From the NCBI GenBank assembly GCA_002422525.1, contig DIWA01000015.1, positions 33,797 through 97,796 of the forward strand: 64,000 nt of DNA, read 5' to 3'. The notes below the pieces were generated by a model that worked only from the letters and a program-made list of their open reading frames with translations, was not told the origin of the DNA and searched no databases. Source of the stretch: Candidatus Hydrogenedentes bacterium UBA6118. GTDB taxonomy: Bacteria > Hydrogenedentota > Hydrogenedentia > Hydrogenedentales > SLHB01. Positions 5,452-38,045 of this stretch are shown here, piece by piece. Position numbers and translations under genes: made by a program. The number at the start of each line of letters is the position of its first letter. Position 1 is the stretch's first letter.

Positions 5452-7077
5452 TCAGGGCGCCTCGGCGGGCCGCGCCTCGCTCAGTCCCGTGAACGGCAGC
5501 GAAGCGACGATGAAGGCCGTGCGCGCCGCGGGCTGTTCCTCGACCCAGCGGGCCAGCGTGGGGGCCGCCTCGTAGTACTTGGCGACCAGCATCCGGCCGA
5601 TGTCGGTGGCCATGAGCACCTGATCGCGGAAGGCGCGAAGGCGCGCCAGGGCTTGCGATCCGTCGCCGTAGGCGGCCTTGAGGGGGCACGTGATGGGCGT
5701 GACGGGACCGCTCGGGCCGTCGGGGGGGTCCGTACCCGCGAGCCACCCGCCTGCTTGGGAGTAGAACAGGCGGAAGGTGGCGAAGTTGTCGTAGTTTCGG
5801 GTCGTATCCGTGCAGGAGTGCATGGGGCCGTTGCTGAGGCAGCCGACGTAGTAGTGCGCGCCGCCCTCGGTGATGAACAGGCCGCAGCCGGAGCTGCCGC
5901 CCTCGGTGACGCCCTCGGTCCACATCACGTCGATCTGCCGTTCCCACGGGGCGGAGGACACATCGACGGTGCGAACGGCGCCGTAGGTGATGCGCATGTG
6001 GGAGCCCTGGGGGTGGTGCATGGCGAAGGCCTGCTCGCCCACGGCGACGGGACGGGTGGTGTAGCCGGCGTAGGCGCGGCCGAGTTCGCCCGGCGGTACG
6101 TCGCTGAGAAGGAGCAGGGTCATGTCGAGGATGGGGTTGGTGGTAAGCAGGGTCGTGCCGTCGGTGCGGGGCAGGCTCGCGAGGGCGGGCGTCTCATTCG
6201 AGTCGCACGCGGCGGCGCGGTAGTCCCAGATGACCTCGGCGACGCTCGCCTCGTCCTGGTCGGCGATGCAATGGTTGGCGGTCATGAAATAGGGCTCATG
6301 CTCAGGGGTGTCGGGGTTGTTGATCAGGATGCCGCTGCAGAGGGCCTGGTCGTAGCCGCCGTTGGTCCAGACCATGAAGCCGACCCCGGTGGAGAGGTTC
6401 TGGATGGTCGGCGAGGTCTCGCAGGCGATGTTGACGTTGCAGGGCAGGGCGATGTCGAATTGCTTGAAGAAATGCGATAAGCCGCGCACGACGAGCCGCG
6501 GGGGATCGGCGGCAGCGGATTTCGCGATGAACACGATGGCGTCGCCCTCGACCGTGGGGGTCCAGCGGCCGTCGGGGAGCGCATCCGATGCACGGTAAGG
6601 GCCGAAGGCGCGGGGGCCCGTGGGGTCGACGACCCAAATCTCGTCGCCGGGCGCGAGGGCGGAGAGATCCAGCACGGCGCGCAGGGCGAAGGCGTCGACC
6701 GATACGAGTTCGCCGACGAAGACGTTGCGGTCGTCCTCGGCGAAGACGGCGGTGAAGAGGTCGGACTCGGCGAGATCGAGCTCCATGCCGACGGCCACGG
6801 TGTGAGATTTGCCCGCGGCCTGGAAAGAGGCGGCGAATGCGTCGTTCATGCCCGCGTAGGCATCGTAGACGACGGGTTCGGCGCGTCGGTCGAGGTATTC
6901 GGCGACGCGCGCCTGGGGCAGCGGGTGGAGCAGCGCGTCGAGGGCGCTCTTGCTGGACACCGGCGGGTCGAAGGCCGTCGGAGCGGTGATGATGGGTTGT
7001 GCGAATGCCGTGCAGGCAAGGCACAGGGTCAAGGCCAGGACGGTAGCCGGAACCGATCGCCGTATGGACGTCGCCAT
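5452..7077 (-). CDS. secreted trypsin-like (S1) serine protease with C-terminal sorting-signal-like domain
   Basis: ATG at 7075-7077 has an AAGGGAGA RBS. It gives the signal peptide MATSIRRSVPATVLALTLCLACTAFA. The catalytic His is in TANHC and the Ser in GGSSGCGLF. The C-terminal 78 aa carry the shared CPLKAAYG...LRAFRDQVL...KYY..AP module. Confidence 0.7.
   Translation of the reverse strand: MATSIRRSVPATVLALTLCLACTAFAQPIITAPTAFDPPVSSKSALDALLHPLPQARVAEYLDRRAEPVVYDAYAGMNDAFAASFQAAGKSHTVAVGMELDLAESDLFTAVFAEDDRNVFVGELVSVDAFALRAVLDLSALAPGDEIWVVDPTGPRAFGPYRASDALPDGRWTPTVEGDAIVFIAKSAAADPPRLVVRGLSHFFKQFDIALPCNVNIACETSPTIQNLSTGVGFMVWTNGGYDQALCSGILINNPDTPEHEPYFMTANHCIADQDEASVAEVIWDYRAAACDSNETPALASLPRTDGTTLLTTNPILDMTLLLLSDVPPGELGRAYAGYTTRPVAVGEQAFAMHHPQGSHMRITYGAVRTVDVSSAPWERQIDVMWTEGVTEGGSSGCGLFITEGGAHYYVGCLSNGPMHSCTDTTRNYDNFATFRLFYSQAGGWLAGTDPPDGPSGPVTPITCPLKAAYGDGSQALARLRAFRDQVLMATDIGRMLVAKYYEAAPTLARWVEEQPAARTAFIVASLPFTGLSEARPAEAP
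5455..5688 (-). other. C-terminal conserved module (copy 3): CPLKAAYGDGSQALARLRAFRDQVLMATDIGRMLVAKYYEAAP... plus hydrophobic tail
   Basis: Aligns position-by-position with the C-termini of the ORFs ending at 28265 and at 30142: Cys, AAYG, [FL]RxFRDxVL, G, YY..[AS]P. Confidence 0.6.
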
Positions 7078-10597: not shown

Positions 10598-11788
10598 TCA
10601 GCCTTCGGCGGCGGTGTCCTGCGTCGCGGGCGCCGGCTGCTGCGCGGGCGCGGGGTTGGGGTTGAAGCGGCCGGCGTACTCGAGCTCGCAGCAGCCGCGG
10701 CAGAGGGCGAAGCCGGATTCGCGGCGGCGTTGACGGAAGCGGCGCAGCTCGGGGCCGTTCCAGATCTCTTTGAGCGGTTTTTCGCGCACGTTGCCGACCT
10801 TCTGGATGAAGCAGGGGTAGACGCCGCCCTTGGCGCCGATGTAGAGGTTCATCCAGACGGCGCGGCACTCGAACTGCGCGAGGTCGTAGCCCTGGTCGTA
10901 GTGGTTGAGGACTTCTTCGTAGGGCATGCGGGGGAGGCGGACTTCGATGCCGAGGCGCCTGGCCTCGGCGAGGGCGCCGCGCAGGGCCTTGTCGAGGCGG
11001 GCGCGATTGATGGTGGGCATGGCGATGTCCTCGCGGGAGAACTCGCCGGGATCGACGAGGCCGACGCGTTCGTAGTCGTCGAGGGATCGCATCTCGGTGA
11101 GGAGGTTGAGGACGTCGGCGCCGGCGTCGGCGGCGATGCGCGGCATCTCCGGCAGGCAATCGAGGTTCTCGTCCTGGACCACGGTGTTCATGTGGATGAG
11201 GGGGGCGTGTTTGCCCAGGCGGTCGCGGTGTTCGCGAAGCGTCGTGACGCCGGCGATGCTGCGGTCGAAGGCGCCCGTCTGGGCGCGGATCACGTCGTGG
11301 ACGTCGCGCGTGCCGTCGATCGAGACGCCGAGGAAGTTGAAGCCGCGCATGCCGAACCATTTTGGGGCGAGTTCGGCGCAGCGGCGGGCGCGCTCTTCGG
11401 TGAGCATGGTGGCGTTCGAGATGAAGTGGACGCGACGCCGGGCGCAGGCGTACTCGAGGATCTCCATGAAGTCCTTGCGGACGAAGACCTCGCCGCCGGT
11501 GAAGGTGAGGAGGCTGAAGCGGGCGGTCTGGTCGATGACGTTGCGCCACTCGTCCGTGGTCAGTTCGCCTTCGGCTTGCACGCGCCCGGGGGTGGTCTTG
11601 TACCACTCGATGTACTGGCACATTTTGCAGCGCAGGTTGCATCGGCGGGTGACTTCGAGGAAGTAGTGCTGGGCGGGGAAGCTGGCGCCGCTTCTGGAGA
11701 GGCGGTAGGGGGCGGCGGTGTAGAGTCGCGTGAGGCCGCGATAGAGTCGCGTGATCAGGCCCATGGGGCTGTATGCGGTGGCATCCAT
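10598..11788 (-). CDS. radical SAM / SPASM-domain protein
   Basis: The CNLRCKMCQY (CxxxCxxC) cluster is near the N-terminus. The C-terminal SPASM Cys pattern is CRAVW...YPCF...CRGCCELEY. The likely start is the ATG at 11786-11788 (MDATAY, RBS GAGGA); the track uses an upstream TTG. Confidence 0.8.
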   Translation of the reverse strand: MDATAYSPMGLITRLYRGLTRLYTAAPYRLSRSGASFPAQHYFLEVTRRCNLRCKMCQYIEWYKTTPGRVQAEGELTTDEWRNVIDQTARFSLLTFTGGEVFVRKDFMEILEYACARRRVHFISNATMLTEERARRCAELAPKWFGMRGFNFLGVSIDGTRDVHDVIRAQTGAFDRSIAGVTTLREHRDRLGKHAPLIHMNTVVQDENLDCLPEMPRIAADAGADVLNLLTEMRSLDDYERVGLVDPGEFSREDIAMPTINRARLDKALRGALAEARRLGIEVRLPRMPYEEVLNHYDQGYDLAQFECRAVWMNLYIGAKGGVYPCFIQKVGNVREKPLKEIWNGPELRRFRQRRRESGFALCRGCCELEYAGRFNPNPAPAQQPAPATQDTAAEG

Positions 11789-11930
11789 GACTATCCTCGG
11801 GGTTCGGCGCAACGGGGCGGGTCGGCATACGCTCCCGCGTGTCCCTCCGTTGGTAAGAGCAACAGGCGCCTGGTCGACCGTATTTCGCGCGGGCGCGGAT
11901 GATGGATGATCGCGTCGCGCGGCGTCGCGT

Positions 11931-22832: not shown

Positions 22833-23033
22833 GCCCTATGCCATTGTATGTTGGTTGGGCCGTCAAAGTCAGCCCGCCGGCGGTCATGGGTCGCAGGCCG
22901 GGGCGGCTTGCGGGCTGTGGGATATCCGTGTGGGGAGTCTGCAAGAGGGCGCGTGTGGCGCCTCCTGGACGACGTCGGGGTGTGCGGGCTCACACGGCAA
23001 GAAGGTAGCCATGCACGCAGAGAAACGGGAAAC

Positions 23034-23073
23034 AACGCTCCTCGGGCATTCACGCCCGGGAGCGTTTTTTGTT
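23034..23073 (+). terminator. intrinsic-terminator-like hairpin plus U-tract in the 5' leader (attenuator or riboswitch expression-platform candidate)
   Basis: AACGCTCCTCGGGC (23034-23047), loop ATTCAC, GCCCGGGAGCGTT (23054-23066), then TTTTTTGTT. The U-tract ends 6 nt before the RBS GGAGGT (23080-23085) and 20 nt before the GTG start. Confidence 0.5.
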
Positions 23074-23093
23074 CCTGCTGGAGGTACCGAACC

Positions 23094-26000
23094 GTGAAGA
23101 CCAAACTCGGCGCTCGAACCTGGTTCATCGGCGCAGCCTTGCTTGCGGGAGCGGCGCTGCTGGTTGCGCCCGCGGCGCGCGCGCAGGACGACGTCCCGAC
23201 GGCGAGCTTCAACATCGAGGACGCCGTCCAGGACGGTCACTCGCTGTTGCCCACGCAGAACTGGACGCCGCTGGTCCGGCTCGAGTTGGCGTGGGACAGC
23301 CAGGACGCGCCCGCGCCGCGGGATCTGACGGGGATGGTGTATTACATCACCGGGGATCCCGTGGATGAGCGGTCGTGGAGTCGGTACGCCAGTCCGGAGA
23401 CGAAGCACCTCTATGAGTTCGCGATCATCCGGGAGGGGCAAGGCCCGGACGACGACGGCTATGGGGTGTTGGGCGACAACGACAGCGTCTGGTATGTCTG
23501 GGACGGCGAAGGCGACCCGGTCGGCGAAGTGACCGACCTGGGCGGGGCCCTGCGGTACGAGATGGACTTCGTGGGGGATGGCACGGAGGACAATCCCGAG
23601 TTCCCGATCCCGAACGGTTCCGCGGACTTTCCCGCGAGCTATTTCCTCGCGGTGCGCACGTCGGCGCTGTGGCACAACGGCATGCACATGAGCGTGCGCA
23701 TTCCGGTGGGCGGGCTCGACTGGAACCCCCGTTTCCCCGACGACTCGGCGACGGTGGACGAGGATCCGTTCGAGCCGGAGACGGCCTACTCGGCCAGTTT
23801 CGGCGCGTACGACGTGACGGGTTCGCTCACCTCCGACCAGAGTTACGTGTACACGAATACGTGGAACTACCCGAACTTCGTGTACACGCCGCAGCCGGAG
23901 TATTCGCGTCCGCGTTGGGACAGCTCGGCGACGGCGCTGCAGATCCTGAACGGCGAGTGGATTCAGCTTCGGCGGCTGTTTGCGATCGAGACGTGGTATG
24001 CGGTGATCGGGCTGAACATGCATTCAAGTTCAGCGTCCGTCATGGAGACGGCGACGCGGAGCGGGTTCGATCCGCTGCTGAATCCCGAGCCGCGCGGCGA
24101 CGTGGGCCGCGTGCGGACGGTCGCGGTGGACGGGGCCTACCCGATCGAGATGAACGTCGTCATGACGGACGTGGGCGGGGATCCGCTCGGGCCTCCGGGA
24201 AACGGCGGGTTCAATCCGCAGACTGGTCTTGAGACCATGACCTACGATGTGCTGTCCGCCGGCGGCGACATCATCGTCGACCGCGCGTACGAGGAGGACC
24301 ACGCGTTCAACGGCGTCTGGCTGTGGCGCGACGGCGGCAACAACGATTTCGACCGGCCAACGCCCGGCGCGAACGGCGCGACGTTCGGCGAGGACACGCC
24401 CGCGTTGCCGATGGGCTGGGCGATCGACGACGACCAGAACATCTTCATGCTGCCGGACGCCGGGCTCGGCGCGTACTGGGAGCATGTGGCGAACCCGCCC
24501 GGCGGCGGGGATCCCTGGTGGCGAATCACGCTGCAGTTCGGCAACAACCGCGGCGGCGCGGGGCGCATGGAGCCGACGCCGAACGGCGATGTGAACGCGC
24601 GGCCAAGCATCCAGTTCCACGATTACTTCATCACGGTGCGCGCGGACAGCGGCTACGCGGATGCGAGCGGCCGGTCGGGCGACGGCACGGGGATCACGTA
24701 CGGCGCCGAGACTCGGATGTACATCGAGCCGCGGTATACGACGCCGAGCAACGACGTGTTCGACGGTTCGATGGACATGGGCGGGCTGCTCGTGACGTCG
24801 CAGTTCCCGCTGGAGTGGTCGGGCGGCTGGCGCGAGCACCCGGCGTTGAGCCCGGTGAACGAGGACACGGGGCTGCGGCAGCAGGAGCCGTGGTGGCACC
24901 AACGCACAATGGATCGCAACAACGCGAAACTGGTGCGCTTCGGCGCCGAGATCCACGACCTCGTGATGACCTACGAGTCGAACAACGCGTTCTCGATGGC
25001 GCAGGGCGTGGACATCGATATCGCGGGCGGCGACAACTTCGGCAACCCGGCGTTCAGCGATCTGCTCGACGACCTCGGCTTTGACTTCTTCTCGATCGCC
25101 AGCTTCGCGCGGTGGATGGATCCGTTCGGGATCCGGTCGGGCGAGTTCATCGACGGCTACCGTACGGGCGTGGTGAACTGGCGGTTCGTGGACTTGGGGA
25201 TCGACGACAGCCAGAACGGCCCGATGCAGAAGCCGTATGAGACGGCGCCGTTCTTCAATCCGCTCGATCTGGCGCCGGCGGGTCCGCGTTCGTTCTTCTA
25301 TCCGAACCCGCCGCAGCAGCCGTCGCTTCCGTCGTATGCGACGTGGCCGCTTGGCGCGGGCGAATTCGCGAACAATCCGGGTATGCAGACGCTGCCTCCG
25401 GGCGAGTTCCCGCGGGAGATCAACTGGCGGCCGGCGGATCTGGGCACGCGGAAGCTGAAACAGCATATCGACGCGGACAGTCGCGCGACGGCGTTGCTGG
25501 GGTTCAACATGGCCGGCGCGAACGACCCGGTGACGAACGAGTTCGCGGCGATCTCGCTCGAGCAGATCACGGTGGCCCTGTGGGGTCCGGACACCAACAA
25601 CGACGGCGTGATGGACTTCTCGCCGGCGGACTTGAAGGCGCTGGACCCGGAGGGTCTGTCCGGCACATCCGGCGTGGCGATCTATGTCGACACGGGGAGC
25701 GGCACGTTCTCGGATCTTGCCGGGGGCGACCAGCCGCTTCCGCTGCGAAGCCTGAAGTGGGGCAGCGCGCCGGAATTCCTCGATGTGACGGGCGACGGCG
25801 AGCCGGATGACCTGAACGGCGACGGCCTGATCACCGGGCTGGACAAGGCGTGGGTGCTGCGGCTGCGTCCGCAGACAGCCTTCCGCGTGCCGGTCGAGGA
25901 CGCGAACATCGCGCCATTTGCGCGTTCGCTGCCGTCGGGCGCGGGCTCGGGCGGCGGCAAGACCGTGCTGGATCTGGGCGAAGAGATCGAGGGCGCGCCG

Positions 26001-28265
26001 TACTGGACGCAGAAGCCGCGCCTGGTGGACCTGGAGACGTATAACGAGGACGCGATCGCGCAGGCTGGACAGGGCATGGGCGACGGGTCGATTCCGGTGA
26101 CTCAGATCCCCGGCGACCCGGACGGCGGCGGCAACGCGGGTGACGACCTGTTCTTCGTAGTTCGGACGTCGGATGCAATCGGGCAGTTCCGGAAGTTCAC
26201 GGCGCTTGTGCCGGCGACGTTGCCGGAGCGGCCTGTACAGGACCGGACGGCGGGGATGCAGTTTGCGCCGTCGAACATCCCGGCCGCGGCCTATGGCAAG
26301 AACCACCCGGAGGAGTCGGGCGGTCCGTCGTTCTTCGAGCACGAGCTGATCGAAGCGAATGTGGCGGTGAAGCTGACGGATTTGACCGGGCAGGGGCAGA
26401 TGCTGTACGCGAACGGCCAGCCGACGGCGGTAATGGGTATTGACGCATCGACGAACCGCGGCGGGGGCGCGATTGTGGCGTCCGGCGAAGCGGGCGTTGG
26501 GGGTCCGGGCCAGTTCACCGCGGCGGGCGCGGGCTTCCCGCCCGGCGGGTTCGTGGGCTACCACCTGATCGATTCGGCGTATGAGTCGTACCTGATCACG
26601 GGGAACACGAACACGCAGTTGACGGTGCTGAGCGGCACGCCGCTTTCGGGGGCGTGGCGGATCGTACGTGATCCGACGTATCTGGAACAGGTTATCGTGG
26701 AGCTGTATCCGGAGGTGGAGGACGTCCAGAACTTCAACCTGCTGGAGCATCTGCTTCCGCTGAATATCAACCAGGATGTCAGCGGTGTGGCGCTGTACCG
26801 CGATAATGACATGCATCCCGACAATCAGAACGGGATCTTTGATCCGGGCGTCGACATCCCGCTGCAACTGGACTACGCGCCGTATATGATCGGCATGCAG
26901 GGCGAACCGCGGCATCAGGTGTTGTTCGTGTTCAGTTCGCCGGGAACGGATGACGTGCCTCTGCAAGGGTTCCCGGCCGGCCTGGCCAACCAGCCGCGGC
27001 GGCGCCAGGTGATCCCGGAGACGTTCGGCGCGACGCTGAGCGACCCGGACCGCGGACCGGACTTCTTCGTGGTGATGCGGGCGGCCTCGAAGGTAGAGGA
27101 GCCGGTGGCGTTCCGGGTCGGCATCGTGTCGTGGGGTCCGAACACGCCGACGGCGCCGGATCCGGACACGTTCCCGCCGCCGCCGGTGGCGACAGTGGGC
27201 GAGTTCGACATCTTCTCGGAGTTCCCGTGGGGCGGGCGCGGCCTCGGCTTCGTCAGCTTCTTTGCGGATATCCGAGACTATGACGCGCGTGACTTCAGCG
27301 GATACAACTGGGTCCGTACGCATCCGAACAAGAACGTGCGGACAAACGTCCTGACCATTGACGAACAGACGGCGCAACCGGGCGACGTTGTGATCACCTC
27401 GGTGTCCCACGACAAGTTGCCGCAGGTGACGCCGGACGGCGGGATCGTGCTGGTGATTCGCGGCAGCGGGTTCGGCACGACGCCGCGGGTGACGCTGAAC
27501 AACACGTTGCTCGAGGTGCAGTCGGCGACGGATACGTCGATCAGCGCGCAGATTCCGGGCGGGTCGACCTTCACGGACATGCTGGTGTTGACGGTTACCA
27601 ACCCGAAGACCGAGAAGACGGGTACGTGGACGGCGATTACCCTTGTTCCGGACGACGGGGGCTTCGGCGACGCGCCGTCGATCGCGTCGGTGTCGCCGAG
27701 CAGCGGCAGCGCGGCCGCGTTCCCCGTGACGATCGTCGGCGCCCGGTTCAGTGATCCGATCGTGCGGTTTGACCAGGCGGAGATGCCGATCGTTGAATGG
27801 ACGCCGACGCGCGTGGTGGTGGCGTTCCCCTCATCGGGTCTGCCCAAGACGGGCCCGTTGGACGTCACCGTGGAGAATGGCGGCTCGGGTCTGTTCGCGA
27901 CGGCGGTGGACGCGTTCACGTATCTGAATATGCCGGGGACCGGGGTGCGGCCGTGCTTCATCGCGACGGCGGCGTACGGTTCGCCGTTGTCCGGGCAGTT
28001 GGACGTGTTCCGCGCATTCCGTGACGATGTGCTGCTGAAGAGCGCGGCGGGCGCGGCGGCGGTCGACCTGTATTACACGGTGAGCCCGGGGTTCGCGGAC
28101 GCGGTTGCGGCGCACCCGGCGCTGGCGATGGCGGTGCGGGCGGCGCTGACGCCGATCGCGTGGGCGCTGAAGTGGCCTGCGTGGGCCGCCGCCGTTGCGG
28201 TCGGTCTGACGTTGTGTGCGGCGGCGGCGTGTTTGCGGCGTCGCCGGGCGCGCGCGGCCGTGTGA
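23094..28265 (+). CDS. giant secreted cell-surface protein (~1,723 aa) with tandem IPT/TIG-like domains, Ca-binding D-x-D-G motifs and C-terminal sorting-signal-like module
   Basis: GTG at 23094 follows GGAGGT by 8 nt. Signal peptide VKTKLGARTWFIGAALLAGAALLVAPAARA-QDD. Ca-loop motifs DTNNDGVMDF and DDLNGDGLITGLD. Two Ig-like IPT/TIG segments (VITSVSHDK...IRGSGFG; IASVSPSSGSAAAFPVTIVGARF). C-terminus CFIATAAYGSPLSGQLDVFRAFRDDVL...DLYYTVSP, then TM AAAVAVGLTLCAAAAC and LRRRRARAAV. Confidence 0.75.
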   Translation: MKTKLGARTWFIGAALLAGAALLVAPAARAQDDVPTASFNIEDAVQDGHSLLPTQNWTPLVRLELAWDSQDAPAPRDLTGMVYYITGDPVDERSWSRYASPETKHLYEFAIIREGQGPDDDGYGVLGDNDSVWYVWDGEGDPVGEVTDLGGALRYEMDFVGDGTEDNPEFPIPNGSADFPASYFLAVRTSALWHNGMHMSVRIPVGGLDWNPRFPDDSATVDEDPFEPETAYSASFGAYDVTGSLTSDQSYVYTNTWNYPNFVYTPQPEYSRPRWDSSATALQILNGEWIQLRRLFAIETWYAVIGLNMHSSSASVMETATRSGFDPLLNPEPRGDVGRVRTVAVDGAYPIEMNVVMTDVGGDPLGPPGNGGFNPQTGLETMTYDVLSAGGDIIVDRAYEEDHAFNGVWLWRDGGNNDFDRPTPGANGATFGEDTPALPMGWAIDDDQNIFMLPDAGLGAYWEHVANPPGGGDPWWRITLQFGNNRGGAGRMEPTPNGDVNARPSIQFHDYFITVRADSGYADASGRSGDGTGITYGAETRMYIEPRYTTPSNDVFDGSMDMGGLLVTSQFPLEWSGGWREHPALSPVNEDTGLRQQEPWWHQRTMDRNNAKLVRFGAEIHDLVMTYESNNAFSMAQGVDIDIAGGDNFGNPAFSDLLDDLGFDFFSIASFARWMDPFGIRSGEFIDGYRTGVVNWRFVDLGIDDSQNGPMQKPYETAPFFNPLDLAPAGPRSFFYPNPPQQPSLPSYATWPLGAGEFANNPGMQTLPPGEFPREINWRPADLGTRKLKQHIDADSRATALLGFNMAGANDPVTNEFAAISLEQITVALWGPDTNNDGVMDFSPADLKALDPEGLSGTSGVAIYVDTGSGTFSDLAGGDQPLPLRSLKWGSAPEFLDVTGDGEPDDLNGDGLITGLDKAWVLRLRPQTAFRVPVEDANIAPFARSLPSGAGSGGGKTVLDLGEEIEGAPYWTQKPRLVDLETYNEDAIAQAGQGMGDGSIPVTQIPGDPDGGGNAGDDLFFVVRTSDAIGQFRKFTALVPATLPERPVQDRTAGMQFAPSNIPAAAYGKNHPEESGGPSFFEHELIEANVAVKLTDLTGQGQMLYANGQPTAVMGIDASTNRGGGAIVASGEAGVGGPGQFTAAGAGFPPGGFVGYHLIDSAYESYLITGNTNTQLTVLSGTPLSGAWRIVRDPTYLEQVIVELYPEVEDVQNFNLLEHLLPLNINQDVSGVALYRDNDMHPDNQNGIFDPGVDIPLQLDYAPYMIGMQGEPRHQVLFVFSSPGTDDVPLQGFPAGLANQPRRRQVIPETFGATLSDPDRGPDFFVVMRAASKVEEPVAFRVGIVSWGPNTPTAPDPDTFPPPPVATVGEFDIFSEFPWGGRGLGFVSFFADIRDYDARDFSGYNWVRTHPNKNVRTNVLTIDEQTAQPGDVVITSVSHDKLPQVTPDGGIVLVIRGSGFGTTPRVTLNNTLLEVQSATDTSISAQIPGGSTFTDMLVLTVTNPKTEKTGTWTAITLVPDDGGFGDAPSIASVSPSSGSAAAFPVTIVGARFSDPIVRFDQAEMPIVEWTPTRVVVAFPSSGLPKTGPLDVTVENGGSGLFATAVDAFTYLNMPGTGVRPCFIATAAYGSPLSGQLDVFRAFRDDVLLKSAAGAAAVDLYYTVSPGFADAVAAHPALAMAVRAALTPIAWALKWPAWAAAVAVGLTLCAAAACLRRRRARAAV
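27954..28262 (+). other. C-terminal conserved module (copy 1) plus TM helix plus Arg-rich tail
   Basis: CFIATAAYGS...FRAFRDDVLL...GAAAVDLYYTVSPGFADAV...WAAAVAVGLTLCAAAACLRRRRARAAV. Confidence 0.6.
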
Positions 28266-28396
28266 AGGGGTCCGACGGGAGTCGGGGAAGCCCACGGTAC
28301 ATATGCTAGGACCCCTCGGGGGGTCTGGAACCGGCCTTTCCGCAGGATGCGATCTCGATCGGGGATCGCTTTGGGAAGGCCCTGAGGAGCCAACAG

Positions 28397-30772
28397 GTGA
28401 GAACGAGAATCTGGCACGTGATGCTGGTGGGCCTGTGTGGGATCGCCCTGCTGTTCGCAGCGCCCGGGGCCGAGGCGTTCTTCCCCCTGGGCGTGTTCCT
28501 GACGGATCTGGAATACGGGGATCCGTTGCGCATCCCGCTGTGGACGCTGAACTACATGGACACGAACGGGGACCGGGACGTGTCCGGAGCGAACGAGGGC
28601 ATCCCGATCACGTTCCAGGGCGGCGATGACGGATGGACCGTGCAGGAGATGCAGGCCCTGCAGGATGGGTTCGAGGTATGGGAGCGCGTGCCGTCTTCGT
28701 TCCTCGCCTTCCAGTACACCCAGCCGGTGGAGCAGGCGCTCGAGACGTCGGATGACTTGGGGTCGATCGACTTCTTCAACTACGTGGCGAATGACGCGGG
28801 CGGCGCGCTGGTTCCGGCGGGGTTCGCCGGGATCACGTTCATCTCGTATGTGGCCGAGAGCGGTTTCTTCACATACAACGGCCAGGCGATCGAGGTGACG
28901 GGGCCGCAGATCCTGGATGCGGATATCGCGATCTACGGGGATGTGATTCAGACCAGCCGCGACATTGATTTCTCGAATGCCACGGACCAGTTCGATGCGG
29001 GGGTGCCGCTGTCGGGTCTGGTGGTTCAGTTGGCGGGGATGATGGCGGGGCTTGGCCAGAGTCCGATGACCAATACCGATGAAGTGCAGGTGCAGACGGC
29101 GGGCGGCGAGCTGACGCTGCTCGTGGATCCGCTGGTGTACGCGGACCGGGTGTTCTCGGGGAACCTGCAGATGGTGGGCGTGACGCCGAGCATGTACCCG
29201 AATCTGGTGTACACGGACCTCGGGAATGACATCTACCGGCTGGCGTGGGAGGACCTCGCGCCGGACGACATCGCGGGGATCACGTTCCTGTATCCGCGGG
29301 GCGACTTGTCGAACTTCTTCACGGTGCAGCAGGAAGCGCGGTACGCGTCGCGGGCCGGGTTCCCGACGGCGCCGATCGCGGGCGGGTTCATCGAGGCCTG
29401 GTGTGACGTGGACGACAACGCGAACACGCCGCGCGTACCGATGTTCAGCACGCTGACGGGGATGTATGAGAACCAGGCGCAGTTCTCCGGGTTCTTCCGA
29501 CTGTACAACCTGTTCCGGCAGATCGAGTCGCCGACGGCCGTGCCGTTCACCGCGTCGTATACGCTTACGCTGAGCGAGCTGGAGCCGCCGGAGGGGTTCA
29601 CGGCGGACTTCTTCGACTCGCTGCACAACGGGCTGTACGCGGGCGGCGGCGGGTTTGCGTTCTCGACGAACTACCCGCATCAGACGTTCCTGGAAGGCGG
29701 CGAGAATATCATGAGCCGGGACCGGCATGATGAGGGCACGCCGCTGATGTACGATCCGGTGCGCGCGGAAGTGGTGAGCGCGGTGTCGGGGCGCACGCTC
29801 GATCAGATGCTGCCGGGAACGCGGCCGATGTTCGGCGAGTCGGATGCGCAGAACGTGTGTCCGTTGACGCTCGCGGCGCGGCTGGCGAAGACGCAGAACG
29901 GTCCGCGGCTGTTGCGGCAGTTCCGCGACGACGTGTTGCTGACGAATGCGCTGGGCGCGGCCGCGGCGGACGCCTACTACCGGATGGCGCCGACGATGAG
30001 CGCGTTCCTGATGGAGTACCCGATTGCGATGAGGACGGCGCAGGCGATGGCGGAGCTGACGGAATGGGGCATCGCGCATGCGCGGATGCTCGCGGCGCTG
30101 TTGTTGGCGGCGATCGGCGCGGCCTTCGCGATGCGGCGGCGGGTCGTACGCGCGGGCGTCGCGGCGGGATTGATCCTTGCTGCCGCGATCGTGTTCGCGG
30201 GCGGCACGGCGGACGCGCAGGCGATCGACTATTCGATCGAGAAGGCGGTCTCGCTGAGCGATGACATTCTGACCGGTGAAGTGACGTCGCTGCAGTGCCG
30301 GATGAACGACAACGGGCAGATCATCACGGACGTCTCGATCGAGATCGAGGACACGATGAAGGGCGCGTTGAATCGTACGGGGACGCTGCATTTCAGCCAG
30401 ATTGGCGGCGAAGTGAACGGCGTCACGACGTATGTACCGCAGTATCCGCGCTGGCGGCAGGGCGAGGAGGTCGTCGTGCTGATGAAGCGGAACGCGGTGT
30501 TCGGCCACATGGCGGTGTACGGCGTCGGCGGGAAGTTCGAGGTGAAGACGGACGAGGAGACGGGCAAGAAGTACGTCGTGGGTTCGACGGCGCTGGCGAA
30601 GCTGGGCCTGGATAGAGCGCGGCCGACGATAGAGAAGCGTGACGGAGCCGAGGCGTCGGAAGACGGCCCGGCGCAGGGCGTGGACCTGGACGCGTTCAAG
30701 GCGTATCTGGAGTCCGTGGCGGCGGAGCAGGCCGCGAACGAGGAGGCGGCGCGGACGGTGTCCGACGAGTAG
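28397..30772 (+). CDS. large secreted protein (791-aa ORF) with internal copy of the C-terminal sorting-like module, then an in-frame second signal-peptide-like segment and a 190-aa domain
   Basis: GTG at 28397 follows GAGGAG by 7 nt. Signal peptide VRTRIWHVMLVGLCGIALLFAAPGAEA. The module CPLTLAARLAKTQNGPRLLRQFRDDVLL...DAYYRMAP spans aa 488-578 and ends in TM MLAALLLAAIGAAFA plus MRRR. Then VVRAGVAAGLILAAAIVFAGGTADAQA and a soluble domain follow to the stop at 30770-30772. Confidence 0.65.
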   Translation: MRTRIWHVMLVGLCGIALLFAAPGAEAFFPLGVFLTDLEYGDPLRIPLWTLNYMDTNGDRDVSGANEGIPITFQGGDDGWTVQEMQALQDGFEVWERVPSSFLAFQYTQPVEQALETSDDLGSIDFFNYVANDAGGALVPAGFAGITFISYVAESGFFTYNGQAIEVTGPQILDADIAIYGDVIQTSRDIDFSNATDQFDAGVPLSGLVVQLAGMMAGLGQSPMTNTDEVQVQTAGGELTLLVDPLVYADRVFSGNLQMVGVTPSMYPNLVYTDLGNDIYRLAWEDLAPDDIAGITFLYPRGDLSNFFTVQQEARYASRAGFPTAPIAGGFIEAWCDVDDNANTPRVPMFSTLTGMYENQAQFSGFFRLYNLFRQIESPTAVPFTASYTLTLSELEPPEGFTADFFDSLHNGLYAGGGGFAFSTNYPHQTFLEGGENIMSRDRHDEGTPLMYDPVRAEVVSAVSGRTLDQMLPGTRPMFGESDAQNVCPLTLAARLAKTQNGPRLLRQFRDDVLLTNALGAAAADAYYRMAPTMSAFLMEYPIAMRTAQAMAELTEWGIAHARMLAALLLAAIGAAFAMRRRVVRAGVAAGLILAAAIVFAGGTADAQAIDYSIEKAVSLSDDILTGEVTSLQCRMNDNGQIITDVSIEIEDTMKGALNRTGTLHFSQIGGEVNGVTTYVPQYPRWRQGEEVVVLMKRNAVFGHMAVYGVGGKFEVKTDEETGKKYVVGSTALAKLGLDRARPTIEKRDGAEASEDGPAQGVDLDAFKAYLESVAAEQAANEEAARTVSDE
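29858..30142 (+). other. C-terminal conserved module (copy 2), located internally in the 791-aa ORF
   Basis: Same Cys / [FL]RxFRDDVLL / G / YY..AP / hydrophobic helix / RRR order as copy 1. Confidence 0.6.
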
Positions 30773-30823
30773 GGCGGACGTCGGTGCGGCGGCCGAGTCG
30801 AACGAGCTGGTAAGTAGTTGATC

Positions 30824-30866
30824 GCGGCGGTCTCAGGGGTTCTGGGGCCGCCGCGTTGTGTGTGTG
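30824..30866 (+). terminator. GC-rich hairpin followed by a (TG)5 / U-G-rich tract
   Basis: GCGGCGG (30824-30830) pairs with CCGCCGC (30848-30854), then GTTGTGTGTGTG. It lies 50 nt after the stop of the 791-aa ORF. Confidence 0.35.
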
Positions 30867-31121
30867 CGGGGGCGGGGGGAGCGCGGGGTTTTGTAGCGCG
30901 TCGCGGCGAAGGGATACACTGGCAACCGCGCCCGTAACCCGAACGGCGTCAACCGCGTGCGGGCAGGGCGCGTTCCCGAAGCGGGTGATCATCCCGGGGG
31001 CGATTCGGCGCATGCGTGGGTCTGCCGCCGAGCGCGTAGCGCGCGGCCGGGATGGAGTGCGCCGACGCAGGCGACGGGGTGTCGTTTGCGGCGTACCTTG
31101 GCTGGAGTTATCGACGAAATC

Positions 31122-32030
31122 ATGTTGCGCGGTCTGCTTATCCGACAGGCGTTGATCGCGACGGACTTGGTCTTGGCGGGACTGGTCGTCGTGATGGCGT
31201 ACTTTGTGATGGCGCGGATCCTTGGGGATGACGCGGTGACGGCGGCGCCTGTGGAGCGGGTTGAGACCTCGACGGATGTGGGCGTGTTGCGCAAGCCGGC
31301 GGAACGCGGGGACTACGACGGGATCATCGCAGGCAATCTCTACGGTCCGGCGGCGGACGTGACGCGCGAAGATCCGGTGGAGGAGGCGGTGGTCGAGGAG
31401 CAGCCGTTGCGCCCGACGACGCTGCCGCTGAAGCTGTACGGGACGCTCGCGCTGGATCCCGAGGATCCGCTGGCGACGGCGGTGATCGAGGATGTGACGA
31501 CGCGCGTGAAGCAGACGTACTATCTGAACCAGCCGGTGAAGGATGGGTACGTGCTGCGCGAGGTGCACAAGCGCCGGGTCGTGTTGTACAACGAGTCGAC
31601 CGGGGCTCTGGAGGAGCTGGCGCAGGAGGACTTGCAGGTGGCGGCGTCCGAGACGCGGAGCGCGGCGAGTGCGCGGCCCGCGGGACGGAGTCCGGCCGGG
31701 GCGAACCAGGTGGTGGTGAACCGGCTCGACACGCAGCGCGAGCTGGAGTCAATGAACTTCGCGGAGTTCTACGCGCAGGTGAGTCCGCAGCTTGTGCGGG
31801 ACGAGGCGGGGAACGTGAAGGGCATCACGTCGCCGAATATCGACAAGGTGCCGCTGGCGCAGCGGTTCGGGTTCCAGAGCGGGGACGTCGTCAAGAAGAT
31901 CAACGGGGTGCAGATCGACAGCGAACAACGTGCGCTGGAAGTGATCAACCGTTTTCAGAATTCGAGCAGCCACTGGCTGACGATAGAGCGGAATGGCCGA
32001 GAACAGACACTCGTCGTGCGGGTGGAGTGA
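31122..32030 (+). CDS. GspC-like T2SS inner-membrane protein with C-terminal PDZ domain
   Basis: ATG at 31122. N-terminal TM LIATDLVLAGLVVVMAYFVMA. C-terminal PDZ-like segment VKGITSPNIDKVPLAQRFGFQSGDVVKKINGVQIDS. It sits immediately upstream of the secretin gene. Confidence 0.5.
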   Translation: MLRGLLIRQALIATDLVLAGLVVVMAYFVMARILGDDAVTAAPVERVETSTDVGVLRKPAERGDYDGIIAGNLYGPAADVTREDPVEEAVVEEQPLRPTTLPLKLYGTLALDPEDPLATAVIEDVTTRVKQTYYLNQPVKDGYVLREVHKRRVVLYNESTGALEELAQEDLQVAASETRSAASARPAGRSPAGANQVVVNRLDTQRELESMNFAEFYAQVSPQLVRDEAGNVKGITSPNIDKVPLAQRFGFQSGDVVKKINGVQIDSEQRALEVINRFQNSSSHWLTIERNGREQTLVVRVE

Positions 32031-32043
32031 CTGGGGACGTGGA

Positions 32044-34542
32044 ATGCTGAACTATCGAGATCCGTATGCGTGGGCGCGACGCGCGAGGAGGATCGGGCGG
32101 CGGACCGGCGTCGGGCTTGTCGCGGTCGCGACCGCGTTGGCGTTGACGGCGGGATGGGTTGCGTGGGTTCCGGCGGAGCGCGCCTGGGCGCAGGACGACG
32201 AACCGTACTACGAGGAGGAGTACATCGAGCCGGATCCGCAGGCGGAGGTGGACGAGGGGGCGGAGTACGAGGAGTACGTCGAGGAGGAGGAGCCTGTGTT
32301 GCGGCCTGTGGCGCCGCAACGGCCGGCGCCGCCGGCGCGCCCGCAGCCGATCCGGCCTTCGCGCGTACAACCGACCCAGGTGCGGCCTGGGACGACCCCG
32401 GCGGCCCCGGGGGCCGCGGCGGAGCCGAACCCGTACCGACCGAAAGAAGGGGCGGCGGCGACGGAGCCGGTGAGCATCGACTATGAGGGGGTGGAGCTGC
32501 AGGAGATCGTGAAGGCGATCGGCGCGGCGACCGGACGGAACTTTCTGCTCGACCCGCAGATCGGCGCGATCCCCGTGACGTTGATCTCGCACGCTCCGGT
32601 TCCCGCGAACATGCTGCTGGACGTGCTGCAGGCGGTGCTCGTCACGCACGGCTTCACGATGCGCGACACGCTGGACGGGAAGCTGATCAAGATTCGACCG
32701 ATTGACGAGGAGGGCGAGAATGCGCCGCTGGTGGTCGGGTCGACGGAGTCGACGGCGCGGTATGACGATTTCGTGACGCACATCGTGCCGGTGCGGTATG
32801 CGTCGGCCGAGGAGCTTGCGCGCCTGCTGCCGCGGCTCGGATCGCGGACGGCGACGGTGGACGCCTACGGGCCGACGAACACGCTGATCCTGTCGGACAA
32901 TGCGCGGGGCATTGAGAACATGCTGACGTTCCTCGCCGAGATTGACGTGCCCGGGTCGGAAGTGGTCATGGAGACGTTCACGCTGGATTACGCGCGGGCG
33001 GAAGTGGTGGCGGAGCAGATCCGGGAAGTGTTGATGGGCGACGAGGGCGTCGCAGGGGATCGGGCGGCAGCGGTGGCTCGGGCGCGGGCCCCGCAACCGG
33101 TGCGGCCGACGGTGCGGACGCCGGTGAGCGCGCAGGCGCAGCAGACGATCATCGGATCCGAGGAGCCGGTGTTGCAGATCGTGGCGGTGGATCGGCTGAA
33201 CATGCTGATCGTGCGGGCGAACGAGTCGCTGATGCAGCAGGTGCGATCGCTGGTGGATCGGCTGGACGTGCAGACGCCGATCGAGGCGAACAACCTGCAC
33301 GTGTATCCGTTGCTGAACGCGGACGCGGAGTCGGTGGCGGAGAAGCTGAACGCGGTGATCGGGCTGACGCCGCGGGCGGCGTCGGACCAGGGAGGGGGCG
33401 ACGCGCAGGCGGCGATCACCGAGGTGCAGCCGTTCGAGAAGAAGGTGCTGGTCGAGGCGTATCCGGAGACGAAGTCGCTGTTGGTCGTTGCGGCGCCGCA
33501 GGACTACGAGGTGATCAAGGAGCTGATCGCGCAGTTGGATGTGGCGCGACGTCAGGTGCACATCGAAGCGTTGATCATGGAGGTCAACATCCAGGATCGC
33601 TACCAGCTCGGGGTTGAGCTGAGCTCGTTGAGCGCGGAAGACGGATTCGCGCTGAATAACGTGATCTCGTTGGCGAACATCATGGCGAACGGGCCGCTGG
33701 CGGGCGTGGGCGGATCGGACAGTCCGGTGTTGACGACCGGCGTGCTGGACGGCGTGGTGTATCTGCCGGTGGCGGGCGAGGACGGCGCATTGACGCTGCA
33801 GGCGTTCCCAAAGATCCCGCTGTTGCTGACGGCGCTGGACTCAATCACGGACCTGGACGTGTTGTCGCAGCCGTTGCTGACGACGGTGGACAACGAGGAA
33901 GGGAAGGTGACGATCGGTCAGGAGGTGCCGGTGACAACGGGGACGCAGTCCTCGCTGAACCAGAGCGCGTCGAACAGCAGCGTTTACAGCCGGATCGAGC
34001 GCAAGGACGTCGGCATCAAGATGACGGTGCAGCCGCAGATCAGCGAGGGCGACAACATCTTCCTGGAGCTGGAGGTGGAAGTGTCGCAGCCGATCCAGAG
34101 CTCGGTGGGGGCGGATCCGAACATTGTGGGCCCGACGTTCTCGAAGTCGAACATCCAGACGCCGCTGATCGTGCGCGATGGATCGACGGCGGTTGTGGGC
34201 GGTCTGATCAGCGAGAGCATCGATCGGTCGACGCGACAGACGCCGTATTTCGGCGATGTGCCGGTGGTCGGGTGGCTGTTTCGGCGGAAGAACGACCAAC
34301 GGAGCAAGCGCAACCTCGTGGTGTTGGTGACCCCGCACGTGATCAAGGAGGGGGTCGACACGGACCGGATCACGGACTACCGACTGGACGAGTTCGGAGA
34401 GGCGAATGCGGATGTCGTGTTTGAGCAAGGGTTTGTGGAACGGATCCGGCGACGTCACGAGACGCGCACGCAGCACCATCCGAGCGGGTCGCGCGTGGAG
34501 CGTCTGCGCACAAACGAGTTTGATCGAGGGGAACTGCGGTAG
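32044..34542 (+). CDS. gspD: type II secretion system secretin GspD
   Basis: About 830 aa. Signal peptide RRIGRRTGVGLVAVATALALTAGWVAWVPAERAWA, a long Pro/Ala-rich linker, N0-N3 secretin-N domains, and the C-terminal secretin domain (VVGGLISESIDRSTRQTPYFGDVPVVGWLFRRKNDQRSKRNLVVLVTPHVI). Confidence 0.85.
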   Translation: MLNYRDPYAWARRARRIGRRTGVGLVAVATALALTAGWVAWVPAERAWAQDDEPYYEEEYIEPDPQAEVDEGAEYEEYVEEEEPVLRPVAPQRPAPPARPQPIRPSRVQPTQVRPGTTPAAPGAAAEPNPYRPKEGAAATEPVSIDYEGVELQEIVKAIGAATGRNFLLDPQIGAIPVTLISHAPVPANMLLDVLQAVLVTHGFTMRDTLDGKLIKIRPIDEEGENAPLVVGSTESTARYDDFVTHIVPVRYASAEELARLLPRLGSRTATVDAYGPTNTLILSDNARGIENMLTFLAEIDVPGSEVVMETFTLDYARAEVVAEQIREVLMGDEGVAGDRAAAVARARAPQPVRPTVRTPVSAQAQQTIIGSEEPVLQIVAVDRLNMLIVRANESLMQQVRSLVDRLDVQTPIEANNLHVYPLLNADAESVAEKLNAVIGLTPRAASDQGGGDAQAAITEVQPFEKKVLVEAYPETKSLLVVAAPQDYEVIKELIAQLDVARRQVHIEALIMEVNIQDRYQLGVELSSLSAEDGFALNNVISLANIMANGPLAGVGGSDSPVLTTGVLDGVVYLPVAGEDGALTLQAFPKIPLLLTALDSITDLDVLSQPLLTTVDNEEGKVTIGQEVPVTTGTQSSLNQSASNSSVYSRIERKDVGIKMTVQPQISEGDNIFLELEVEVSQPIQSSVGADPNIVGPTFSKSNIQTPLIVRDGSTAVVGGLISESIDRSTRQTPYFGDVPVVGWLFRRKNDQRSKRNLVVLVTPHVIKEGVDTDRITDYRLDEFGEANADVVFEQGFVERIRRRHETRTQHHPSGSRVERLRTNEFDRGELR

Positions 34543-34547
34543 CCGCC

Positions 34548-36302
34548 ATGGTTGAGATGGCCGAGAGCCGGATCTGCGAGATTCTCGTGCGTAACGGCCG
34601 CCTGCATCCGGAGCAGGTGGACGAGGCGCTTGAGCTGCAGAAGATCCGCCCGAAGCGGATCGGCGAGCTGCTGTTGGATCTCGGGTATATCGAAGAGGAT
34701 GAGCTGTTGGAAGCGCTGAGCGAGCAGTTCGGGATCCCGTTCGAGACGGGGATTCGCGAGCAGCTCGACTCGTCGCTGACGACGCGGGCGCCGATCGGGT
34801 TCATCCGCGAGTACCACATGGTGCCGCTGCGCAAGAACGGCTCGGCGTACTACGTGGCGCTGAACGATCCGGCGAACCTGCCGTTGCTGGACGATCTGCG
34901 GCTGCTGTTGGGCGGGCCGGTGACGCCGGTGCTGTGTCGTCGGGAAGATATCCAGGCGGTGATCGACGGGTACTTTGACCAGCAGGGCGAGAACGCGGCG
35001 GACATGCTGGACAGCATCGTGCTGGACGAGCATGACGACGATGAGCCGGGGTCGATCGACCTGATGGACGGCGATCGCGACCTGCTGGACCTGGCGAACG
35101 AAGCGCCGATCATCAAGCTGATCAACCTGCTGATCTCGGGGGCGGTGCGCGAGCGCGCGTCGGACATTCACATCGAGCCGTTCGAGCGCGAGGTGAAGGT
35201 GCGGTATCGCATCGACGGCGTGCTCTACGACAAGTTCAACGTGCCGAAGTCGCAACAGGCGGCGGTGGTGTCGCGCATCAAGATCATGGCGCGGCTGAAC
35301 ATCGCGGAGCATCGGCTTCCGCAGGACGGGCGCATCAAGATCCGGCTGAGCGGGAAGGAGATCGACATTCGCGTGTCGGTGATCCCGATTCAGCACGGCG
35401 AGCGCGTGGTGATGCGTATCCTGGAGAAGGGCAGCTTCCTTTTCGGGCTCGAAGAGCTGGGGATGGCGCGACAGGACTACGAGCTGGTCGACAAGCTGTT
35501 GCGGAGCCCGCACGGGATCATGCTGGTGACGGGCCCGACGGGCTCGGGAAAATCGACGACGCTATACGCCTGTCTGCAGCGGGTGCTGTCGCCGGATATC
35601 AATGTGATCACGGTCGAGGACCCGGTCGAGTATCAGATGTCGGGGGTGGGCCAGATTGAGGTGAAGCCGAAGATCGGGCTGACCTTCGCGCACGCGCTGC
35701 GGAGCATTCTGCGGCAGGACCCCGATGTGATTCTGGTGGGCGAGATTCGCGATCTCGAGACGGCCGACATGGCGGTGCACGCATCGCTGACGGGGCACCT
35801 GGTGTTCTCGACGCTCCACACGAACGACAGCGCGGGGGCGATCACGCGGCTGGTGAACATGGGGATCGAGCCGTTCCTGGTGACGTCGTCGACGATTGCG
35901 ATCATGGCGCAACGGCTTGTGCGGAACATCTGCCCGGACTGCAGGGAAGCGTACGAGCCGGATCTCGAGAGTCTGCTTGAGCTCGGGCTGACCGAGGAGC
36001 AGGCGCGGGGCAAGTCGGCGTATCGGGGGCGGGGCTGCGCGAAGTGCCAGAACCGGGGCTATTACGGCCGGACGGGGATCTTCGAGCTGCTGGTGATGAC
36101 GCCGCGCGTACAGAATCTGGCGTTGCGGGGGGCGGACTCGAACCAGATCAAGCGCGAGGCGAAGAAGTATGGCATGCGCACGCTGCGCGAGGACGGGGCG
36201 GCCAAGGTGATGCGCGGCGTTTCGACCATCGAGGAGGTGTTGCGGGTGACGCGCGACGATATCCTCGAGGAGCTTCCGGAGCCGGGCGATGGCGGTCTAT
36301 GA
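34548..36302 (+). CDS. gspE: T2SS ATPase GspE
   Basis: N-terminal T2SE_N domain. Walker A GPTGSGKSTT, Asp box, Walker B ILVGEIRD. Tetracysteine motif CPDC...CAKC. Confidence 0.9.
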   Translation: MVEMAESRICEILVRNGRLHPEQVDEALELQKIRPKRIGELLLDLGYIEEDELLEALSEQFGIPFETGIREQLDSSLTTRAPIGFIREYHMVPLRKNGSAYYVALNDPANLPLLDDLRLLLGGPVTPVLCRREDIQAVIDGYFDQQGENAADMLDSIVLDEHDDDEPGSIDLMDGDRDLLDLANEAPIIKLINLLISGAVRERASDIHIEPFEREVKVRYRIDGVLYDKFNVPKSQQAAVVSRIKIMARLNIAEHRLPQDGRIKIRLSGKEIDIRVSVIPIQHGERVVMRILEKGSFLFGLEELGMARQDYELVDKLLRSPHGIMLVTGPTGSGKSTTLYACLQRVLSPDINVITVEDPVEYQMSGVGQIEVKPKIGLTFAHALRSILRQDPDVILVGEIRDLETADMAVHASLTGHLVFSTLHTNDSAGAITRLVNMGIEPFLVTSSTIAIMAQRLVRNICPDCREAYEPDLESLLELGLTEEQARGKSAYRGRGCAKCQNRGYYGRTGIFELLVMTPRVQNLALRGADSNQIKREAKKYGMRTLREDGAAKVMRGVSTIEEVLRVTRDDILEELPEPGDGGL

Positions 36303-38026: not shown

Positions 38027-38045
38027 CGACCGCGCGAGGCGGGCC

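Follow-up and report, generated by a model that had tools for sequence, protein, structure and literature searches.

The S1 protease VesB of Vibrio cholerae, which bears a GlyGly-CTERM signal, needs both rhombosortase and type II secretion for its surface display (PMC6219818). MYXO-CTERM proteins, with their invariant Cys, are cleaved by myxosortase and are predicted to be surface-bound via type II secretion (PMC11980579). Here we describe a 64,000-nucleotide stretch of DNA from Candidatus Hydrogenedentes bacterium UBA6118 (contig DIWA01000015.1, positions 33,797 to 97,796; hereafter the window), in which the gene of a predicted secreted S1 serine protease ends in a module opening with a Cys. 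By sequence comparison, this tail, the last 78 residues of the protein, is a true member of the NCBIfam domain family NF041770, "CFI-box-CTERM". Two further copies occur in the window, one on a giant TIG-domain protein and one on the product of a 791-amino-acid (aa) open reading frame (ORF). Since the CFI-box has already been named and catalogued by NCBI, the module is not new, and an annotation pipeline would name the protease copy. We know of no cognate enzyme for it. Haft's paper on Cys-containing sorting signals (10.1101/2023.06.07.544157) does not include the CFI-box.

Results

The protease tail belongs to the CFI-box family

The protease gene and its predicted parts, in positions of the window, are listed below; pLDDT is the predicted local distance difference test score of the AlphaFold2 (AF2) model.

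5452 to 7104, minus strand: gene of the LysC-like S1 serine protease, predicted to be secreted (ORF list; 550 aa counted from the GTG start)
7000 to 7077, minus strand: signal peptide, aa 10-35, MATSIRRSVPATVLALTLCLACTAFA followed by Q (read from the sequence; putative cleavage site)
6457 to 6999, minus strand: N-terminal beta-rich, pro-domain-like region, aa 36-216 (AF2 model with pLDDT >90; putative boundary)
5740 to 6456, minus strand: S1 catalytic domain, aa 217-455, with His278, Asp327, Ser405 and six conserved Cys (alignment; Foldseek against PDB)
5689 to 5739, minus strand: flexible Pro/Gly-rich linker, aa 456-472, AGTDPPDGPSGPVTPIT (pLDDT down to 67 in the block 461-470)
5455 to 5688, minus strand: helix-less CFI-box domain, aa 473-550 (NF041770, 48.1 bits; AF2 helices; hydropathy 0.94)

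The codon of the module's Cys lies at 5688-5686, the last sense codon at 5457-5455 and the stop codon at 5454-5452, so that the coordinates (5455-5688) and the residues quoted for the module in a preliminary description of this locus are exact. The NF041770 profile matched the protease tail with an E value of 7.6e-13, above the curated cut-off of 40 bits, and aligned aa 477-531 with positions 6-61 of its 69. The giant and the 791-aa ORF scored 80.4 and 36.9 bits against the same profile, the second value being just under the cut-off. When the protease and giant tails were compared directly by BLASTP with composition correction on, they were 43% identical over 51 aa (E 4e-8). The profile and BLASTP results together bear out the earlier proposal that the module is homologous to the copies on the giant and the 791-aa ORF, ~22 kb away. 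A six-frame search with a profile built from the three copies recovered only those three in the window, the next-best match having an E value of 0.73. No Pfam family matched any of the three regions, and the suggested check for a protease-associated domain that would fit the protease tail better likewise found none in Pfam.

Across 29 aligned modules, the Cys, R..RD, one Tyr and the Pro are invariant, and the Leu, the Gly and the second Tyr are near-invariant. The first box of the protease module reads CPLKAAYG against the signature CFIATAAYG, with Cys473 and AAYG retained, and the protease homologues have their own version of this motif, CP[AL]xxxF. The rest of the core is complete, comprising LRAFRD, G503, YY and AAP, followed by an amphipathic helix (525-539). 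The module occupies the C-terminal position on an exported protein: the last predicted helix of the protease ends 6 residues before the stop, and a signal peptide stands at the N-terminus.

The protease tail has no membrane helix, and this layout is conserved

The most hydrophobic 19-mer of the protease tail has a hydropathy of 0.94, whereas the giant and the 791-aa ORF reach 2.05 and 2.29, and the protein ends in ...SEARPAEAP, with neither a membrane helix nor an Arg cluster after the module. The preliminary description had correctly seen the weaker hydrophobic segment and the lack of Arg residues. Its suggestion that the protease copy might be degenerate did not stand, as the helix-less form recurs with the same conserved core in 32 of 44 homologues and in 51 of the 149 top-scoring family modules (see below). 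We also considered a membrane helix hidden by a frameshift at the 3′ end of the gene, and found none in any reading frame.

The NF041770 profile, with its 69 positions, appears to stop before the membrane helix: positions 1-68 correspond to aa 1703-1770 of the giant (numbered in a 1805-aa ORF), whose helix begins at aa 1776. Because of this apparent end point, a missing helix does not exclude a protein from the family.

We then compared the 44 closest protease homologues, which are mostly annotated as Candidatus Hydrogenedentota. The module lacks both the helix and the Arg cluster in the 32 mentioned above, one of which (P0044; 32% identity) is cut short, stopping 4 aa past YYxxAP; complete helix-less copies are found from 93% down to 36% identity. 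The tails extend 29-66 aa past YYxxAP and mostly measure 73-89 aa counted from the Cys. Their hydropathy ranges from 0.47 to 1.78 across the module-bearing homologues, none of which has a basic cluster at its end, and C, LRxFRD, G, YY and AP are conserved throughout. Some homologues scored under the NF041770 cut-off, P0003 for example with 35 bits. Judged from these alignments, the helix-less layout is conserved across the Hydrogenedentota homologues of the protease.

Ten homologous proteases (P0023, P0025, P0029 and P0037-P0043) have a different tail in place of the CFI-box: a Cys is followed, after ~15-20 residues, by a hydrophobic segment that leads into an Arg-rich end, as in ...GCTGSKSS...LVLYGALIAGLTRLSRRRRT. 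These tails had no NCBIfam match above cut-off (MYXO-CTERM gave 13.3 bits on P0043, against a cut-off of 20), and they may represent an uncurated Hydrogenedentota sorting signal. Because these ten homologues swap the CFI-box for a Cys, hydrophobic and Arg-rich tail, we suggest that the C-terminal position in these proteases is used for localization signals.

The CFI-box is predicted to be a folded four-helix domain

Modeled in isolation with AlphaFold, the module forms four helices (positions 4-9, 13-27, 33-55 and 57-73) with a pLDDT of 95.6. In the full-length AF2 model of the protease, the module has helices at 474-479, 484-499 (containing LRAFRD), 501-523 (YY..AP), 525-539 and 541-544, with a pLDDT of 78-92, after a linker in which the score falls to 67. 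The predicted fold has no relative among solved structures. These models predict that the CFI-box, rather than being a short sorting peptide, folds into four helices as a compact, extracytoplasmic domain of ~70 aa that has the invariant Cys at its start. Its passengers, exported domains of very diverse kinds, are joined to it by a Pro/Gly linker. Helix-less modules also stand in tandem in the small proteins P0136 and P0138, whose N-termini resemble signal peptides, and internal modules are present in larger CFI-box proteins.

The family is large, and its members have two main layouts

A word-index search with the giant's module as a short query returned 10 matches, and a profile search was used instead. 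Against 1.84 billion representative proteins, the module profile had 31,199 matches at E<=1e-3 and 12,741 at E<=1e-10, counted as representative protein clusters at 50% identity. A peptide scan of one genome per species yielded at least 599 CFIATAAY stretches, of which at least 584 were confirmed as loci. The bacterial carriers include Hydrogenedentota, Nitrospirota, Dehalococcoidia/Chloroflexota, Geobacter/Geomonas, Nitrosomonas, Gallionella, Oligoflexus and Desulfovibrio; the archaeal ones include Methanophagales, Bathyarchaeia and Halobacteriota. Several genomes carry more than one stretch. Geomonas oryzae, Oligoflexus tunisiensis and Nitrosomonas sp. Nm51 are carriers that can be cultured.

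As had been surmised, the module is portable and not tied to one protein family: in addition to the 31,199 clusters, a sample of 84 CFI-box proteins contained 61 Pfam passenger families, among them InlB B-repeats, DUF11, PKD, Trypsin_2 (S1), subtilases (S8), beta-propellers, GDSL lipases, NosD, LRR and cadherin. Of 114 family members, 63 show an obvious hydrophobic signal at the N-terminus; the test is not rigorous, since most of the others look like N-terminally truncated metagenomic fragments.

Among 149 modules of the best-scoring representatives, 84 continue into a linker, a membrane helix and a basic cluster; 51 have no helix and reach the end of the protein within 25 residues; 14 are arranged otherwise. 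The consensus CFIATAAYG..P..LR.FRD..LL.n..G..fV..YY..SPP.A…VR..L.P is common to all three groups. At the level of genome loci, where reading frames are closed by a stop, 19 of 88 complete modules in the best 80 CFIATAAY loci are helix-less. There are thus two main layouts: ~55-60% of the sampled modules are followed by a short linker, a membrane helix and an Arg/Lys cluster, and about a third stop right after helix 4. The protease copy has the second layout. In the first, the order of helix and Arg/Lys cluster implies that the passenger and the module lie outside the cytoplasmic membrane and the tail inside.

Two further kinds of tail were seen as well. In Dehalococcoidia and related Chloroflexota, the module is followed by a conserved motif, (T/A)VAVNTT..EK.AI.GL..L.S.A.A.WATRRRGRGPEYT, with an N-x-T sequon just before the membrane helix; it was found at ten loci (L018, L032, L037, L043, L048, L050, L057, L058, L064 and L073) and in many representative proteins. 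A separate helix-less class ends in EATGD(I/M)W(R/Q)N.

The protease is predicted to be secreted and is probably active

The protease gene has a G+C content at third codon positions of 0.89, typical for real genes of the window, which has 64-71% GC. Its ATG at 7077 is probably the true start, giving 541 aa, because P0001, a database protein 93% identical to the protease, begins with MATSIRRS, which corresponds to the internal Met10. The signal peptide ends in CTAFA before the Q, and AF2 predicts an N-terminal helix (17-33) with low pLDDT. A scan for promoters and terminators around the gene found nothing.

The catalytic region is matched by the Pfam family Trypsin_2 (E 4.4e-9). Mean pLDDT of the full-length model, computed with 42 homologues, is 90.7, and the closest solved folds in a Foldseek search are those of Achromobacter protease I and Lysobacter LysC (1arb/4nsv, E ~1e-14); against 1arb, the E value is 8.7e-15, the target TM-score 0.71 and the identity 25%. 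The chymotrypsin fold and the His-Asp-Ser triad are present, and His278, Asp327 and Ser405 are invariant in the alignment of 42 homologues. The pro-domain-like region (aa 36-216) lies upstream of the stretch that Foldseek aligns to mature LysC/API. Taken together, the sequence features indicate that the protease is secreted and probably active. The catalytic domain has six conserved Cys (222, 228, 256, 279, 300 and 431), which we take to match the three disulfides of Achromobacter protease I in 1ARB. If they pair in that way, Cys473 of the module would be left without an intramolecular partner.

The other two copies head a type II secretion operon

The window's remaining CFI-box genes and the operon that follows them are these.

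23094 to 28265, plus strand: gene of the giant TIG-domain protein, 1723 aa from GTG (identical to P0237)
27954 to 28169, plus strand: canonical CFI-box module (CFIATAAYG...) of the giant (NF041770, 80.4 bits)
28173 to 28262, plus strand: membrane helix WPAWAAAVAVGLTLCAAAACL and Arg cluster RRRRARAAV of the giant, after the module (hydropathy 2.05)
28397 to 30772, plus strand: 791-aa ORF, with the CFI-box mid-protein
29858 to 30073, plus strand: mid-protein CFI-box module of the 791-aa ORF (NF041770, 36.9 bits; alignment)
30086 to 30223, plus strand: helix 1 of the 791-aa ORF, MLAALLLAAIGAAFA, followed by M-RRR and by a second hydrophobic segment, which resembles a signal peptide and ends in ADA before QA (read from the sequence)
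30224 to 30769, plus strand: 182-aa C-terminal domain of the 791-aa ORF
30957 to 43343, plus strand: type II secretion operon with GspC-like protein bearing a PDZ domain, secretin GspD, GspE, GspF, GspG, minor pseudopilins, GspK and GspM (Pfam)

The genes of the giant and the 791-aa protein are the first two of a complete type II secretion operon (22848..43343, plus strand), directly upstream of GspC. The order of giant, ~800-aa protein and GspC-D-E-F-G-pseudopilins is kept in three other Hydrogenedentota genomes (L085, L086 and L087), whose ~800-aa proteins show 33-45% identity. The giant and the ~800-aa proteins may serve this secretion system as accessory components, or they may be substrates dedicated to it.

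For the giant, the mechanical 1805-aa ORF over-extends at its 5′ end (22848..23093, plus strand): the 1723-aa P0237 is identical from GTG 23094, which opens a clear signal peptide, VKTKLGARTWFIGAALLAGAALLVAPAARA followed by Q.

The preliminary description had placed the second copy at the C-terminus of its protein; the module of the 791-aa ORF in fact sits mid-protein. This architecture is kept in 28 Hydrogenedentota homologues (603-869 aa) and at loci L002-L005 and L009, and a metagenome scan with the 791-aa protein gave a single weak locus. The second hydrophobic segment reads like a Sec signal peptide, MRRRVVRAGVAAGLILAAAIVFAGGTADA followed by QA, and no stop codon separates the module from the 182-aa domain. 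The same junction of module, helix, basic residues and signal-like segment is present in unrelated large proteins (P0131-P0135 and P0265), and P0134 resembles a fusion of a giant-like with a 791-like protein. The sequences suggest that proteins of the 791-aa type are natural polyproteins that would be split by signal peptidase. The 791-aa ORF also matches NF033207 (midcut-by-XrtH) weakly, with 18.5 bits against a cut-off of 45. One of its homologues, P0292, has a precomputed Peptidase_M10 (matrixin) match where the window protein has no Pfam match, and a diverged metalloprotease may make up the family's N-terminal part.

Genes around the protease

The protease gene is flanked by an RNA methyltransferase gene and by a divergently transcribed gene of unknown function. 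A radical SAM/SPASM gene (10598..11812, minus strand) lies 3.5 kb from the protease; it is not found near the homologues at L083 and L084, two homologous protease loci, and is probably unrelated. L083 (BTWA01000005.1) has two CFI-box proteases in tandem (P0019 and P0008). Immediately downstream of them, on the other strand, lies a gene for a YhfC-type intramembrane protease (PF10086), and ~5 kb upstream a rhomboid gene; the arrangement was seen at this single locus and neither in the window nor at L084. Elsewhere in the window, a cluster at 52826..57423 (minus strand) resembles a bidirectional [NiFe] hydrogenase with a NuoE/F-like diaphorase (NiFeSe_Hases, Oxidored_q6, Fer2_4/NADH-G and Complex1_51K). 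The GC skew is strongly positive in every 2-kb step (0.09-0.24) whatever the gene orientation, and the cumulative skew climbs steadily over the 64 kb.

Discussion

We infer, and consider rather probable, that the CFI-box serves at the outer face of the cytoplasmic membrane as a portable domain for envelope retention or docking, and that it is no short, cleavable sorting peptide. Helix-bearing copies would hold their passenger at that face. Helix-less copies such as that of the protease could not anchor themselves and would bind a common envelope partner through the conserved polar face (R..RD and YY) and the free Cys; candidates for that partner are another CFI-box, a lipid and a processing factor. 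The protease would thereby be kept cell-associated or be routed onward, in this lineage perhaps through the type II secretion machinery whose operon is headed by the other two CFI-box genes. The preliminary description had favored a portable tag for sorting or anchoring over a functional domain belonging to one protein family. That the module is shared and portable agrees with our results; the rest is supported only in part, given the predicted four-helix fold, the tandem and internal copies, and a protease copy that has no membrane helix.

Several observations weigh against this envelope-retention or docking role. A literature search by family name and signature peptide found no paper or experiment on the CFI-box, and all that we say of its function is inferred. 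Within the window there is no sortase-like, rhomboid or CPBP gene, and neither a binding partner nor a processing enzyme was identified. The two homologous protease loci have no neighbors in common with the window protease and no synteny with it, and no neighbor family recurs across the 80 CFI-box loci, except for a cluster limited to Dehalococcoidia and related Chloroflexota. Furthermore, archaea and Dehalococcoidia, to our knowledge, have no type II secretion; since the family occurs in both, this pathway is not a general mechanism and would be a lineage-specific link only. Two sampled Methanophagales assemblies had, among the best 80 matches, only helix-less or unclassified modules, which argues weakly against an obligatory helix-bearing docking partner.

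Among the alternatives, a classical C-terminal sorting signal recognized by a dedicated sortase-like intramembrane enzyme is unlikely, although several observations fit one. The "-CTERM" name given by NCBI groups the CFI-box with putative sorting domains, an invariant Cys marks the boundary between passenger and module, 84 of the 149 top modules continue into a membrane helix and basic cluster, and homologous proteases have a Cys, hydrophobic and Arg-rich tail at the same place; moreover, four invariant-Cys signals described by Haft are processed by CPBP proteases (10.1101/2023.06.07.544157). However, the CFI-box is not listed among those signals, the part that would be recognized is a folded 70-aa domain and not a short motif adjoining the helix, modules occur in tandem and internally, and no candidate enzyme is found in the window or as a conserved neighbor. 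Membrane helix and basic cluster are both missing from the protease and from 31 further homologues. The protease copy cannot be a signal of the classical motif, membrane helix and Arg type, and an intramembrane sorting enzyme is unlikely to act on it because there is no helix to engage; for helix-bearing copies, a sortase-type mechanism is possible. The tail might instead be a protease-specific extension that aids folding or secretion or acts as an inhibitor and is removed on maturation, as happens to the C-terminal extension in the precursor of Achromobacter protease I; this precursor and that of LysC carry extensions at both ends. The catalytic domain is closest to these enzymes, the protein has a pro-domain-like N-terminal region and a linker-tethered C-terminal domain, and the helix-less form is tightly conserved in the protease clade, with its own CP[AL]xxxF variant. 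We nevertheless hold this to be quite improbable: the same domain with the same invariant residues is found on 61 unrelated Pfam passenger families and on two window proteins linked to type II secretion, a flexible linker of low confidence parts it from the catalytic domain, and its replacement in homologues by the Cys, hydrophobic and Arg-rich tail points to localization over folding.

It is very improbable that the tail is a non-functional remnant whose anchor was lost by decay. The weaker hydrophobic segment, the missing Arg cluster, CPL in place of CFI and the homologues that fall under the NF041770 cut-off, such as P0003, speak for decay. Against it, C, LRxFRD, G, YY and AP are kept in the module from 93% to 36% identity, the fold is confidently predicted, and helix-less copies with an intact consensus make up a third of the top family hits. 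Chance resemblance deserves practically no weight; Ala/Arg-rich low-complexity stretches are common in this high-GC coding sequence, but the NF041770 and BLASTP E values exclude it, and the next six-frame match stands at 0.73.

Taken alone, the protease finding is the rediscovery of a named domain and is ordinary. Its value lies in the family: a very large group without a literature (>31,000 clusters) emerges as a predicted folded four-helix domain rather than a short sorting peptide; among the sampled members, about a third, including an entire clade of LysC-like proteases, are anchorless yet have all the conserved residues; and two anchored members are conserved leading genes of a type II secretion operon in Hydrogenedentota. 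The predicted fold, the helix-less third and the synteny with the operon make the label of "-CTERM sorting signal" questionable. These results bear on how uncultured phyla and archaea retain exported enzymes at the envelope. As a bolder and distinctly doubtful extension, the CFI-box might constitute a docking system across bacteria and archaea, in which helix-less copies on enzymes bind membrane-anchored copies on scaffolds in a cohesin-dockerin-like display. A disulfide joining the two invariant Cys, which otherwise have no partner, might lock the binding, and the role of scaffold would fall here to the giant TIG-domain protein and to the ~800-aa protein heading the type II secretion operon. 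If true, this would be a way of displaying enzymes on the cell envelope.

Compared with NF041770 as a whole, the protease copy has the Cys, LRxFRD, G, YY and (S/A)P core, the C-terminal place and an exported passenger, but it lacks the membrane helix and Arg cluster that most of the family and the window's two other copies possess. The signals LPXTG, PEP-CTERM, PGF-CTERM, GlyGly-CTERM and MYXO-CTERM all consist of a short motif directly before a membrane helix and an Arg/Lys cluster, and neither feature is present in the protease copy. For the 791-aa ORF, the midcut-by-XrtH family NF033207 offers a parallel in that a membrane segment resembling a sorting signal lies mid-protein; there, however, the signal is PEP-CTERM-like and not a CFI-box. 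Achromobacter protease I and Lysobacter LysC provide the nearest catalytic fold and the six-Cys pattern, but their C-terminal extensions are not CFI-box domains. Like VesB, the enzyme described here is a predicted secreted trypsin-like protease with a portable C-terminal module in a host that has a type II secretion system with a PDZ-bearing GspC/EpsC; unlike the helix-less CFI-box, with which it has no sequence or architecture in common, GlyGly-CTERM is a Gly/Ser motif with a membrane helix and a basic tail that is cut by a rhomboid. In the MYXO-CTERM proteins (PMC11980579), an invariant Cys likewise opens a C-terminal module on diverse exported proteins; the canonical CFI-box also ends in a helix and an Arg cluster, and a link to type II secretion is plausible. 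In signals of the MYXO-CTERM type, however, the ~25-35 aa include a motif adjoining the helix, whereas the CFI-box inserts a predicted folded four-helix domain of 70 aa.

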